Shown piece by piece: positions 1,799 through 3,607 of a stretch of 64,000 nucleotides of DNA. Where the stretch lies: the IMG/VR virus record IMGVR_UViG_3300031998_000043; one strand, 5' to 3'. Position 1 is the stretch's first letter; every line of letters begins with the position of its first letter. The translations under genes and the position numbers were made by a program. The notes below the pieces were generated by a model. The model saw only the letters and a program-made list of their open reading frames with translations, searched no databases and was not told where the DNA came from. Origin of the DNA: a virus (taxonomy: Duplodnaviria > Heunggongvirae > Uroviricota > Caudoviricetes).

Positions 1799-3607
1799 AT
1801 GGAACAATCTCAGTGGACAAATTCCCAACCTATTGATCTAGTTATCCCTTACGTTGATTCTGCTGACCCATTGTGGAAGTCCGATTTCCGCAGAATGCTT
1901 ACAAAACAGATTGGCGGAAATAGCCCTCAACGCTATAGAGGAAACGGTCTTTTCAAGTATTTCTTCAGAGGTGTGTGTCAAAACATGCCTTGGATCCGTA
2001 CTATTCATGTGGTATTAGCAAGGCCATCACAATTACCTAAATGGCTAAATACTAATAATCCTAAGATCCATGTTGTTTATCACAAGGATTATATTCCTGC
2101 TACAGAACTTCCGACATTTAATAGTAATGTAATCGAGATGTTCTATCATAAAATTCCTGGCCTGTCAGAGAATTTTATTATTGCTAATGATGATTTCTAT
2201 GTACTCCATCCGGCAAGCGAATATGATTTCTTCCGTAACGATAAGCCAGTGGATACAGCTATTCTTGCAGCAGATGATTATAAGAAGAAGGGTCTTGTTT
2301 ATAACTTCAGATGTACTCTCTGGCATAACAACACGCTTCTGTGTAAACTTCTGAAAGTACCGAAAGTTCCTTCTTATAAGATCTTCCATGCATTTACTCC
2401 TATGAAGAAATCCACATATGAGTATGTTTGGCAAAAATGCGGAAAAGATCTAATGGAAGGTATTCATAGATCGGCATTTAGACTATCCAGAAACTTTACT
2501 TGGCATCTGTTCAGAGCATATAGACTGTATAAGAAAGACTATATTGAAGATGGCAGCGTTGTACATGATTACAAATATACCGAAATCAAAGTCTTTAAGG
2601 ATATTGAAAAAGTAACATTTGATTCTACTTATCTTTGTCTTAATGACAAAGCCGGTATGCAAGCTGAAAGAACTTTTGGTGCAATTAGACAAAAGTTTAA
2701 TAGGTTTTTCCCGACTGATTGTCAGTACGAAAAAACAGTGATTGACACAAGTGCAAGAAAAATCATAGGAAGCCCAAAGAGAATGGAAGATTCCTATAAT
2801 GAATTCATGTGTCTTTCTAAAGAAGAACTTGCGGAAAAGTACAAGAATCCTGAAAAATTTGATTATGTAGTTTCTTTTACTTCATTTGGAAGAAGACTAA
2901 AATATGTCCCTATTATGGTATTCTCGTATGTTGTTCTAAAACGAAAGAATATGCGTCTATGTCTTACCATTTATAAGGATGACTACAAAAATATTCCTCC
3001 TGATTTGATGAGGCTTATTGATGCCGGTATTGTTGAGCTTCTTATTTCTGATGTAGACTATGGGCCGCATTTGAAATATGTTGTAGCTATGGACTGCTAT
3101 TATGATAAGCCCATTATCACGATTGATGATGATAGATACTGTTCTAATACTACATTTGATGGCTTGATCAGGGTCTATGAACGCACAAAATTCAAGACCG
3201 TTATCTCCAACTGTTCTATCAAGATGCAGAAAGAGGGTGCTGGTCTTGCTCCACTTAAGAAGTGGCAAGCTTCTAGACAGGATCCCAATACTACATCATT
3301 CATCGGTATGGCTGAAGGTTTTGCTGGTGTATTGTACCCTCCTAAATGCTTTGAAGACTTTGAAAATCATAAGAAAGAAATCATCGAATGCAAATATGAC
3401 GATGATCTATTCCTTAAGGTTAGAGAAATCGAAGCAGGTATTCCTGTGACGACAACCAGTATGGTTGATGTCCATGAAGGAAGTACACAGATCCGTGCAA
3501 TGCTACCTTGGAATCTTCATAAGAATGTGAATAGCAATGCCTCCGATAATCGAAACAAGATGATTAGGAAGTTTGCTAAACGTCTGTTAAAAGGATTTCA
3601 GTTATAG
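1799..3607 (+). CDS. Stealth-family (CR1-CR4) hexose-1-phosphoryl transferase with a C-terminal extra domain carrying a DDD motif
   Basis: CR1 [15 protein letters not shown]; CR2 [18 protein letters not shown]; CR3 [43 protein letters not shown]. Confidence 0.85.
   Translation: [602 protein letters not shown]

Follow-up and report, generated by a model that had tools for sequence, protein, structure and literature searches.

The phosphodiester-linked capsules of major pathogens are products of Stealth enzymes, as is the mannose-6-phosphate tag of animals, and the locus described here raises the question of what such an enzyme, fused to a second domain, might do in a large, uncultured tailed phage. 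The stretch analysed (the window, 64,000 nucleotides of the Caudoviricetes record IMGVR_UViG_3300031998_000043 of IMG/VR) contains genes for a large terminase subunit, a tail sheath, a DNA polymerase and virion proteins, in agreement with the phage origin earlier assumed for it. A sequence-only reading had described a 602-aa product of the open reading frame at 1799-3607 as a phage-encoded Stealth hexose-1-phosphotransferase with an extra C-terminal domain. The frame is confirmed on the + strand with an ATG start, and the description is supported by the sequence, the catalytic residues and the predicted fold. The interpretation favoured here, held tentatively and at somewhat less than an even chance, is that of a bifunctional enzyme that would add a sugar-phosphate-sugar unit to a glycan of the host envelope.

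Organization and Conservation of the Locus

The fusion gene lies in a cassette bordered on either side by a terminator-like hairpin:

1755-1779, + strand: hairpin followed by a T-run, the left cassette border (terminator-like site of 11 pairs, tail ATTTTTACCA)
1790-1794, + strand: ribosome-binding site GAGGA, separated by a few nt from the start codon at 1799 (read from the sequence)
1799-3607, + strand: gene for the two-domain protein (Stealth plus GT-A), 602 aa (ORF list, ATG start)
3616-4224, + strand: 202-aa ORF, weakly DUF1919-like (weak Pfam match, homologues in other viral loci)
4228-4254, no strand assigned: palindromic terminator-like hairpin (12-pair stem, then TTTTATTATC), the right cassette border, common to the convergent virion gene
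4260-6350, - strand: convergent gene for a 696-aa virion structural protein (phrog_20401, E 1e-37), given as context rather than as a demonstrated part of the system

A gap of 8 nt separates the fusion gene from the 202-aa ORF, whose ribosome-binding site (AGGAG) overlaps the stop codon of the former, so that the two genes are probably co-translated. The product of the 202-aa ORF matches Pfam DUF1919 (PF08942) at E 2.7e-4 and 21 bits, under the cut-off of 25 and over profile positions 24-102 only, and the homologue in the viral contig L007 gives an equally weak match; a homologue search returned only the protein itself, and a search of PDB sequences was empty. Among the fetched loci, homologues of this ORF adjoin Stealth or glycosyltransferase (GT) genes in the phage contigs L020, L007 and L006, and Pfam DUF1919 proteins are found in CPS/EPS loci (PMC5901230; PMC3609815).

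The same 602-aa protein occurs residue for residue on four contigs (ENA, Logan and JGI assemblies of independent samples; sources ERZ27257204, SRR9008937 and IMG 3300028833), a 134-kb phage contig with identical copies of the gene having been assembled independently, and the whole Stealth and GT-A architecture recurs in two homologues at 56% (P0002) and 46% (P0003) identity; the fusion is thus not an artefact of assembly or of a frameshift. In a sister allele (P0004) the Stealth half is retained but followed by a different C-terminal domain, and two phages whose NrdD proteins are 89% and whose virion proteins are 63% identical share only 46% identity in the fusion protein. Such divergence, together with the domain swap, is the diversification expected for surface-glycan genes.

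No family is assigned to the protein by NCBIfam or PADLOC, and PHROGs offers only a marginal match to a family without known function. It has no transmembrane segment (19-residue hydropathy peak 1.14), and a candidate C-terminal amphipathic membrane-binding helix was rejected, not being outstanding in a hydrophobic-moment scan. The coding sequence divides into three parts:

1826-2740, + strand: Stealth hexose-1-phosphate transferase domain as predicted, residues 10-314 (Pfam CR2, CpsY alignment, AF2)
2741-2851, + strand: interdomain linker, residues 315-351, predicted flexible and poorly conserved (pLDDT, alignment)
2852-3598, + strand: predicted GT-A fold glycosyltransferase domain, residues 352-600 (alignment A1, profile search, AF2, Foldseek)

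The two domains were modelled separately with AF2; a combined full-length alignment (A4) was discarded for structure prediction, since it wrongly matched the second halves of free-standing Stealth proteins to the GT domain. Within the linker, pLDDT falls below 50 for residues 315-345, and P0002 and P0003 have diverged in this stretch.

The N-Terminal Stealth Domain

Residues 10-314 form a genuine Stealth domain, as supported by their sequence, their catalytic residues and the fold predicted for them. The region CR2, which is diagnostic of the Stealth family (PMC1285062), is matched by the Pfam model Stealth_CR2 (PF11380) over residues 45-149 at E=3e-33, with 114.5 bits against a cut-off of 39.4, and phmmer aligns residues 12-320 with residues 3-318 of the chain of M. 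tuberculosis CpsY (E=4.5e-19), over the full length of the domain. The key residues of the domain are E113, N130-D131-D132, H197, K204, R228 and the CLND motif at 280-283. In CpsY, mutation of E305, N322, D324 or R419 abolishes activity or cuts it 200-500-fold (PMC10668966), and these positions correspond to E113, N130, D132 and R228 here, all four invariant in the alignment. The AF2 model (pLDDT 87.7) is ordered to about residue 314, and its top 13 Foldseek matches in the PDB are all Stealth proteins (GNPTAB, CpsY and fly GNPT; E 3e-21 to 2e-16), the next matches having E>1e-5. The domain is predicted to take a sugar-1-phosphate from a UDP-sugar and transfer it, UMP being released.

All four Stealth conserved regions had been reported from the sequence, which holds by alignment, although by Pfam only CR2 is above threshold. 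The models for CR1 (PF17101) and CR3 (PF17102) find no match in the protein, and that for CR4 (PF17103) reaches 14.1-14.7 bits, below its cut-off of 27.4. In the Pfam search that had been proposed as a check, with scores below threshold counting as refutation, CR2 therefore passes and CR1, CR3 and CR4 fail. The alignment places CR1 at I12-D13-L-V15-I-P-Y18, D20, D23 and W26 (D13, V15 and W26 invariant), residues that line up with CR1 of proteins matched by PF17101; CR3 at H197, K204 and F227-R228, where R228 occupies the position of CpsY R419; and CR4 at C280-L-N-D283, FP305 and E311. Conservation, judged against 13-20 Stealth proteins, is complete or nearly so at these residues, and CR3 was termed 'less well conserved' by those who described the family (PMC1285062). 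The two peptides quoted in the sequence-only reading are present, a 39-residue one at residues 97-135 and TIDDDRY at 441-447, but the former, labelled CR3, lies inside CR2 and forms its core. That reading had also mixed up two accessions, PF11380 being CR2 rather than CR1 and CR1 being PF17101, while those given for CR3 (PF17102) and CR4 (PF17103) were right.

The failure of three Pfam models, together with the absence from the phage clade of an insert of ~30 residues found between CR2 and CR3 in bacterial homologues, could point to a decaying moron, or to an enzyme that modifies some other substrate such as phage DNA. This explanation is considered highly improbable: the catalytic and motif residues of both domains are all kept across alleles at 46-56% identity, the identical protein comes from independent samples, and deletion of the S2 spacer of CpsY increases activity rather than abolishing it (PMC10668966). 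For DNA as the substrate there is neither precedent nor evidence.

The C-Terminal Glycosyltransferase Domain

The C-terminal ~300 aa had been taken for a second, uncharacterised domain. A second domain it is, but not one of unknown fold, residues 352-600 being, as modelled, a DxD GT-A glycosyltransferase, with the single Rossmann-like fold of such enzymes and the DxD motif behind the fourth strand. Its motifs comprise S359-x-T361...R366, H424-L-K426-Y, G507..G510-x-L-Y-P-P515 and D535-D536, and the DxD motif itself, D443-D444-D445, is invariant in 46 sequences (alignment A1). The AF2 model has a pLDDT of 92, and its top Foldseek matches are PmHS2 (first), SpsA, TarP, GnT-I and other GT-A enzymes. 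Searched as a single sequence, the domain returned nothing meaningful from Pfam or PDB sequences; the family profile matches KfiA (5z8b) at E 9e-8 over part of its length (profile positions 9-121) and the GlcNAc-T domain of PmHS2 at E 7e-7 (profile positions 9-211). As GT45 is reached by the family profile only, the domain is best called GT45-like and not a member of GT45. KfiA of E. coli K5 and PmHS2 of Pasteurella (CAZy GT45) share with it the GT-A fold and a DDD motif at the same position, but they are only distant relatives (13-16% identity, TM about 0.5), and the phage domain forms a separate family; the specificity of GT45, retaining alpha-GlcNAc transfer from UDP-GlcNAc, cannot be transferred to it. 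This family is large (2164 clusters at E<1e-3) and has no Pfam model.

Distribution in Phages and Bacteria

Stealth is absent from 50,697 GenBank phages, as judged by tblastn with three queries (the whole protein, its Stealth domain with E<=1, and a Stealth protein typical of bacteria), and it is absent from PHROGs. A DNA-level search of window positions 1-8000 against GenBank phages gave no match, and no report of a Stealth enzyme in a bacteriophage was found in the literature. The IMG/VR viral loci returned nothing in a single-sequence scan, but the alignment-based scan that proved necessary found Stealth in 65 of them; the Stealth-bearing viral contigs, dozens in number, are uncultured and of gut or rumen type. 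Other viral Stealth proteins are fusions to GT2 or GT32-like domains, and in the viral contigs L011 and L020 Stealth and GT are separate neighbouring genes. The only clear viral Stealth folds in BFVD (E 1e-15) are the environmental Megaviridae 'Stealth proteins' A0A5J6VJV6 and A0A5J6VJ25, which belong to giant eukaryotic viruses, have a single domain (276-287 aa) and show 16-23% identity.

Fusion of Stealth to a GT of the present family was found only in this phage clade and in none of the bacterial loci. A stand-alone GT of the family does lie within 8 kb in 28 of the 80 bacterial Stealth loci, and in 9 of those 28 it is on the same strand and overlaps the Stealth gene or lies <=150 bp from it. 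Pairs of this kind in gut Bacteroidales (for example the Prevotella sp. locus L101) combine the same two families, often with overlapping stop and start codons, and stand with GT92 and GT2 genes; they differ from the phage gene in being chromosomal and separate, with GT preceding Stealth, and their GT is 24-27% identical to the phage domain. As one phage protein joins two families that gut bacteria encode in neighbouring genes, the phage probably synthesizes or alters a surface sugar chain with phosphate links.

Relation to Known Sugar-Phosphate Transferases

The capsule polymerases CsxA and CsaB of Neisseria meningitidis X and A and CpsY (PDB 8j2n) have the same catalytic domain, CR1-CR4 and predicted reaction, and the CpsY chain superimposes on the phage Stealth model as the same fold (TM 0.87, rmsd 2.6 A). 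They are described as single catalytic-domain proteins from bacterial capsule loci (PMC5974469), whereas the phage protein is GT-fused, phage-encoded, at most 35% identical to the bacterial homologues found and shorter in the CR2-CR3 spacer. Since the characterised Stealth capsule polymerases are single-domain (PMC5974469), tandem action of the two phage domains is deduced from the fusion and the gene neighbourhood; on that footing it is judged somewhat better than an even bet that both activities act in tandem. The Stealth core is also common to the eukaryotic GNPTAB (best Foldseek match, E 3e-21; phmmer E 4e-19 over CR2), the Notch, DMAP and EF-hand inserts of which are missing from the phage protein. 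GNPTAB is a large membrane protein that acts on the N-glycans of lysosomal enzymes in the Golgi.

A closer architectural parallel is provided by CslB, Cps12B, Cps1B and Ccs2, which unite GT-A and TagF-like domains in a single chain and synthesize poly(di- or trisaccharide phosphate) (PMC5974469). Like the phage protein, these polymerases hold a glycosyltransferase and a sugar-phosphate transferase in one polypeptide, and they are the best model for how it may work. In them, however, the phosphotransferase is TagF-like (GT-B-like), the GT-A domain comes first and the genes belong to group 2 capsule loci that include exporters, whereas the phage phosphotransferase is a Stealth domain, CslB has no similarity to Stealth (PMC5974469), and the phage gene has no exporter nearby.

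This parallel with CslB, Cps1B and Ccs2, as makers of poly(oligosaccharide phosphate) (PMC5974469), and the intact residues of both active sites are consistent with a second explanation, according to which the protein alone would extend a simple primer into a poly(disaccharide-phosphate) resembling a capsule or a teichoic acid, as a Stealth-based counterpart of the GT-A/TagF-like enzymes. A self-contained polymerase of this kind is regarded as distinctly unlikely: genes for an ABC transporter and for lipid-primer synthesis are absent nearby, and the bacterial neighbourhoods of the pair are for the most part small clusters that also hold several further GTs, a setting more suggestive of assembly in steps than of a polymer made by two enzymes.

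Phage Background, Expression and the Virion Neighbour

The terminase shares 41-42% identity with its counterparts in jumbo phages of the AR9/PBS1 group, and the phage looks virulent (AR9/PBS1-like). A complete relative of 235 kb is IMGVR_UViG_3300031992_000008. No tRNAs were found. The closest bacterial Stealth homologues are ~35% identical at most and are spread over Bacteroidales and Clostridia; a 49%-identical fragment occurs in an Oscillospiraceae MAG contig (L114), with no other gene common to that contig and the phage. From ~8 kb upstream of the window to ~9 kb past its end there are no other glycan-pathway genes, and specifically no priming transferase, flippase, ABC transporter, Kps-type or lipid-primer genes; among the called window genes none belongs to the Pfam families of the GtrA flippase, the GtrB bactoprenol glucosyltransferase or GtrC-type proteins.

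An AR9-type early-promoter motif is present before many window genes and absent before the fusion gene, and a sigma-70 promoter scan returned no more sites than expected by chance. Upstream of the gene, TTTTTGTA and ..CTATG elements are suggestive only and lie partly inside the coding sequence of a small upstream ORF.

The virion protein gene has a 63% identical, syntenic counterpart in the related contig L001 and a 45% identical one in the more distant L011, and its homologues include virion proteins of phiR1-37 and of Staphylococcus jumbo phages. This setting introduces the main rival to the envelope, virion glycosylation, in which phage structural proteins would be decorated with sugar-phosphate-sugar in the cytoplasm before assembly, which could shield virions or tune adhesion. 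Virus-encoded glycosyltransferases do decorate virions in some mycobacteriophages and giant viruses. The cassette is convergent with, and 36 nt from, the virion structural protein gene; the arrangement is conserved in L001, and in L011 the virion gene homologue lies 5.5 kb from the Stealth/GT cluster. The missing early-promoter motif also accords with this explanation, as do the missing export and priming genes, which make a cytoplasmic acceptor plausible, and the activity of the eukaryotic Stealth enzyme GNPTAB on glycoprotein glycans. Against it, bacterial Stealth enzymes and the linked GT family are located in envelope-glycan loci, GNPTAB requires an existing N-glycan while an enzyme for the first protein-sugar linkage was not found in the window, and the synteny with the virion gene may merely reflect conserved gene order. 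Taken together, virion glycosylation is thought unlikely, though less so than the self-contained polymerase.

Proposed Function

On the favoured reading, in which a sugar-phosphate-sugar unit is built on a host envelope glycan, the protein would be a soluble, cytoplasmic enzyme with two active sites. In a first step the Stealth domain would move a sugar-1-phosphate from UDP-hexose or UDP-HexNAc to a hydroxyl of an acceptor sugar, releasing UMP and leaving a phosphodiester bridge, and in a second the metal-dependent GT-A domain (DxD) would add a further sugar from a nucleotide sugar through an ordinary glycosidic bond. Given the flexible tether of ~35 residues, the two domains would act successively on the same glycan, and the product would be a sugar-sugar-phosphate side branch or, with repeated alternation of the steps, a chain of poly(disaccharide-phosphate). 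The DUF1919-like protein, probably co-translated, may be a third, accessory component. As no priming transferase, flippase or exporter is encoded, the acceptor would most likely be a host lipid-linked envelope glycan intermediate, of capsule, LPS/LOS or teichoic-acid type, at the inner membrane face. The cell surface would be altered during infection, for example so as to block adsorption of rival phages or re-adsorption of progeny.

The GtrABC systems and TarP of temperate phages are phage-encoded modifiers of host-surface glycans; Gtr-type genes are lacking from the phage window, while TarP is among the GT-A fold matches. Clusters of glycosyltransferase genes in jumbo cyanophages have been proposed to modify host surface polysaccharides against superinfection (PMC7824862), and as in the present case these phage-carried GTs vary between relatives and are thought to alter the host surface. 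None of the three, however, involves a Stealth enzyme or a phosphodiester-linked sugar.

Classical surface conversion is a temperate-phage trait, which counts against an envelope role in a virulent-looking phage, as does the position of the fusion gene next to the virion protein gene in three related phages. The lack of an early motif and the virion-gene neighbour agree no less well with a late role directed at the virion. The host envelope, as the target, is put at slightly below even odds, and surface remodelling and virion modification, both raised in the sequence-only reading, are still the two leading functional explanations.

Significance

The natural fusion of Stealth to a GT predicts that two widespread gene families share a glycan as their target. 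A bolder possibility, considered rather doubtful, is that the protein is the first phage sugar-phosphate polymerase, founding a 'Stealth/GT-A' class that would alone build a poly(disaccharide-phosphate) or phosphoglycan on the envelope or the virion. If so, the swappable C-terminal domains among sister phages would constitute a mix-and-match toolkit for phosphoglycan synthesis, and a product on the virion, the more unusual option, would mean phosphoglycosylation of a protein or virion in a bacterial virus. More generally, the fusion offers a functional handle on a large glycosyltransferase family without a Pfam model and a compact candidate for the enzymatic synthesis of sugar-phosphate polymers such as those used in glycoconjugate vaccines, and it suggests that the remodelling of phosphoglycans may serve as a weapon in conflicts between phage and host, or between phages, among gut anaerobes.

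The Fusion Gene and Its Phage

The sequence-only reading of this region had placed an open reading frame (ORF) of 602 aa at 1799..3607 on the + strand, and had proposed that it encodes a phage Stealth-family transferase with an extra C-terminal domain. Both the ORF, which begins with ATG, and that interpretation are supported, and the latter is sharpened by the identity of the extra domain as a glycosyltransferase (GT). Because the protein sequence is identical on four contigs of up to 134,125 bp, drawn from ENA, Logan, and JGI assemblies, and aligns end to end with two homologues (594 and 597 aa long, 56% and 46% identical to it), it is no assembly artefact. 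Together with the next ORF, the gene forms a compact unit:

1755-1779, hairpin with a T-run, 5' of the fusion gene
A few nt 5' of the start codon, + strand, ribosome-binding site GAGGA, read from the sequence
1799-3607, + strand, fusion gene
3616-4224, downstream ORF of 202 aa; its AGGAG overlaps the fusion-gene stop codon, with a gap of 8 nt between the genes
4228-4254, palindromic terminator common to this cassette and a convergent gene for a 696-aa virion protein

That the window belongs to a phage is clear from its genes for the large terminase subunit, a tail sheath of 1432 aa, a DNA polymerase, and virion proteins; no tRNAs were found in it, and an anaerobic ribonucleotide reductase is encoded a short way upstream on the contig. 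The terminase shares 41-42% identity with its counterparts in Goe21, BpSp, PBS1, and AR9, all jumbo phages of Bacillus; for the S6-like jumbo phages of Staphylococcus the value is 33%. At least 16 + strand genes between 16554 and 33618 have TATATTA[AT] 30-45 nt 5' of them, mostly directly after a hairpin and T-run. This motif fits the core of the early promoter read by the AR9 virion RNAP, AAATATATATTAT-(6N)-G (PMC5312081). Taken with the terminase similarity, it assigns the phage to the AR9/PBS1-like jumbo group.

Several other features of the window were observed. The unusually long tail sheath (58688-62986) has a strong sheath-family match only in its last ~290 residues, implying large extra domains. 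At least 10 small tandem ORFs (~100-160 aa; 99-1011 and 7886 to ~13400) have in common the C-terminal motif ..Y[IL][IM]G.[LM]E..[IL]E (e.g., MRYIIGSIEKSIE, MRYIMGDLEASIE, and LRYLIGLLEEHVE) and look like a putative lineage-specific paralogue expansion. Genes at 43196-44366 and 44393-45569 (356 and 358 aa) are 80% identical, indicating a recent tandem duplication, have no match in Pfam or PHROG, and are each preceded by a near-identical ~75-nt leader (CCATTGAAATACGGGTCGCGACCGAAGAAACCTGTA...) that could be a regulatory element. A Tad2-like (anti-Thoeris) ORF (30913-31191), a 539-aa Band_7/flotillin protein (31212-32831), and a SpoVG and NAD-synthase pair (15465-16498) are accessory genes suggestive of counter-defence and of a way to replenish NAD+.

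The Stealth Half

The Stealth domain spans residues 10-314, and its assignment, like that of the GT domain, is made with high confidence. Of the Pfam models that the sequence-only reading had named as a check, Stealth_CR2 scores well above its cut-off (114.5 against 39.4 bits, residues 45-149), whereas CR1 and CR3 have no match to the fusion protein and CR4 reaches only 14 bits, so that one of four passes. The accession list in that reading was shuffled, PF11380 being CR2, and the peptide it presented as CR3 (residues 97-135) is the CR2 core. Its statement that all four conserved regions are present nonetheless holds by alignment, although three of them are missed by the Pfam models. In alignments with 13-20 Stealth proteins, the CR1 positions IDLVIPY, D20, D23, and W26, the CR3 positions H197, K204, F227, and R228, and the CR4 positions CLND 280-283, P305, and E311 are invariant or nearly so. 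These agree with the original family description, in which CR1 reads "IDVVYTF or very similar," CR3 is "less well conserved," and CR4 contains CLND or CIND (PMC1285062).

Comparison with the Mycobacterium tuberculosis Stealth enzyme CpsY extends this to the catalytic residues. Residues 12-320 align by phmmer to the entire crystallised CpsY fragment (8j2n; E 4.5e-19), and CpsY E305, N322, D324, and R419, mutation of which abolishes activity or lowers it 200-500-fold (PMC10668966), correspond to phage E113, N130, D132, and R228. The AF2 model of this half (pLDDT 87.7) is ordered to about residue 314, and its 13 top PDB matches are exclusively GNPTAB, CpsY, and fly GNPT structures (E 3e-21 to 2e-16; for CpsY, TM-score on target 0.87 and rmsd 2.6 Å), followed by generic GT-A enzymes at E>1e-5. 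The phage clade is missing ~30 residues between CR2 and CR3 relative to bacterial homologues; since removing this spacer from CpsY increases activity (PMC10668966), the deletion is no argument for decay.

The C-Terminal Glycosyltransferase

The C-terminal domain (residues 352-600) was correctly recognised as extra but is not uncharacterised. Its sequence alone has no match in Pfam or PDB. It has many stand-alone homologues of ~256 aa (at most 49% identical), and an exhaustive search returned 2164 cluster representatives at E<1e-3, many within long multidomain proteins. In a 46-sequence alignment, K426, D443-D444-D445, G507, G510, L512-Y-P-P515, and D535-D536 are invariant, and a profile built from it matches the GT45 enzyme KfiA (E 9e-8) and, in its GlcNAc-transferase domain, Pasteurella heparosan synthase 2 (PmHS2; E 7e-7). 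The AF2 model (pLDDT 92) adopts a GT-A fold with PmHS2, SpsA, and other GT-A enzymes as best matches, and the domain is therefore a DxD GT-A glycosyltransferase. Judged from profile and predicted structure, it belongs to a family without a Pfam model that appears distantly GT45-like, a likeness from which neither GT45 membership nor specificity is to be read. The linker (residues 315-351) is weakly conserved and modelled with low confidence, and no transmembrane segment was found in the fusion protein; two intact catalytic domains are carried by one soluble polypeptide with a flexible linker.

Relatives and Gene Neighbourhoods

Another phage, represented in IMG/VR by contigs of 135.7 and 235.3 kb, carries the same fusion in the same position, with the virion gene directly after it and without a DUF1919-like ORF. 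Identity between the two phages is 89% for NrdD, 91% for a large neighbouring protein, and 63% for the virion protein, but only 46% for the fusion. The sister allele P0004 retains the Stealth half (52-56% identity) joined to an unrelated C-terminal domain, so that the protein diverges strongly, and swaps domains, among sister phages.

When IMG/VR was scanned with an alignment, Stealth relatives came to light at 65 viral loci, among them contigs of jumbo size and giant-virus bins. The majority have a single domain and ~290-310 aa; some others carry a fused GT2 (L014, L016, and L025) or GT32-like domain (L072), and L011 and L020 encode separate Stealth and GT proteins of the phage fusion's families side by side. 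The closest stand-alone GT homologues (P0085 and P0103) lie on phage-like contigs, in small cassettes that also hold GT92-like, GT2-like, and pyruvyl-transferase genes. Glycan cassettes of 4-5 genes without a Stealth gene are present on phage-like contigs L007 (8395-13136) and L008 (7202-10954), comprising GT92-like genes, at least two copies of the GT family without a Pfam model, DUF1919-like genes, a GT2-like gene, or a 590-aa fusion of FrhB and pyruvyl transferase; glycan cassettes thus appear modular across this phage group. The 50,697 phage records of GenBank yielded no Stealth relative, even with the threshold relaxed to E<=1, and a PHROG family is likewise lacking; among BFVD viral proteins, the fold is common only to two Megaviridae environmental "Stealth proteins."

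Bacterial genome assemblies contain at least 587 Stealth relatives, mostly from gut or rumen Bacteroidales and Clostridia, none above 35% identity over the whole domain. Among the best 80 of these loci, none encodes a fused Stealth and GT protein, and 28 have a stand-alone GT-family member within 8 kb, in nine cases on the same strand and at most 150 bp from, or overlapping, a Stealth gene. The phage protein is a fusion of two families often encoded as neighbours, which is classic evidence for action in the same pathway. On a Prevotella sp. contig (L101), the order is LpxL-like acyltransferase, Stealth, GT92, the phage fusion's GT family, Stealth, and GT2. This small cluster (7093-12738; first Stealth protein 330 aa, lipid A acyltransferase LpxL-like) is conserved in many other Bacteroidales loci, adjoins TamB and a PLD-like gene, and may serve gut Bacteroidales in making a phosphorylated glycan of LOS/LPS type.

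A third small protein is recurrently linked to the two families. The 202-aa ORF bears a weak resemblance to DUF1919 (21 bits, below the Pfam cut-off of 25), and a database homologue search matched only itself. Among the loci examined, homologues lie directly 3' of the P0004 gene (L006), 3' of a stand-alone GT of the fusion's GT family on a 108-kb phage-like contig (L007, with an equally weak DUF1919 match), and between a Stealth gene and two GT genes on a 215-kb viral contig (L020). Proteins with DUF1919 occur in CPS/EPS loci. The L020 cassette adjoins a TnpB-like gene (OrfB_IS605 and Cas12f-like TNB domain; 13333-14601), which hints that such cassettes occupy mobile or recombination-prone spots.

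Proposed Function

The Stealth domain would transfer sugar-1-phosphate from a UDP-sugar with release of UMP, and the GT-A domain would add a sugar from a nucleotide sugar in a metal-dependent reaction; together they would install, or polymerise, a sugar-phosphate-sugar unit. Such tandem action is somewhat favoured. A working analogy is offered by CslB, Cps1B, and Ccs2, GT-A/TagF-like polymerases whose product is poly(oligosaccharide phosphate) (PMC5974469) but whose phosphotransferase has another fold. Annotation of the stretch reaching from ~8 kb 5' of the window to ~9 kb past its end shows no other glycan gene, whether for a priming transferase, flippase, polymerase, exporter, or nucleotide-sugar enzyme, and so none for priming or export. 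With nothing further supplied by the phage, the acceptor would most likely be a lipid-linked envelope glycan of the host and the aim surface remodelling, as proposed for glycosyltransferase clusters in other jumbo phages (PMC7824862); we put this target forward tentatively. Its main rival is glycosylation of the virion, to which two observations point, neither of them strongly: in three related phages the gene has one for a virion protein as its neighbour, and a motif scan of the window finds no AR9-type early core TATATTA[AT] before the fusion gene, as against the 16 or more genes with it.

The fusion is akin to phage genes that modify glycans and to bifunctional sugar-phosphate/glycosyl transferases, and its proposed function is plausible. 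Our literature searches yielded no publication describing a Stealth enzyme from a phage, and the family goes unmentioned in a comparative review covering 224 jumbo phages. The protein presents a Stealth enzyme in a bacteriophage as a new finding, together with a new Stealth/GT-A fusion, an arrangement unseen in the 80 bacterial loci examined.
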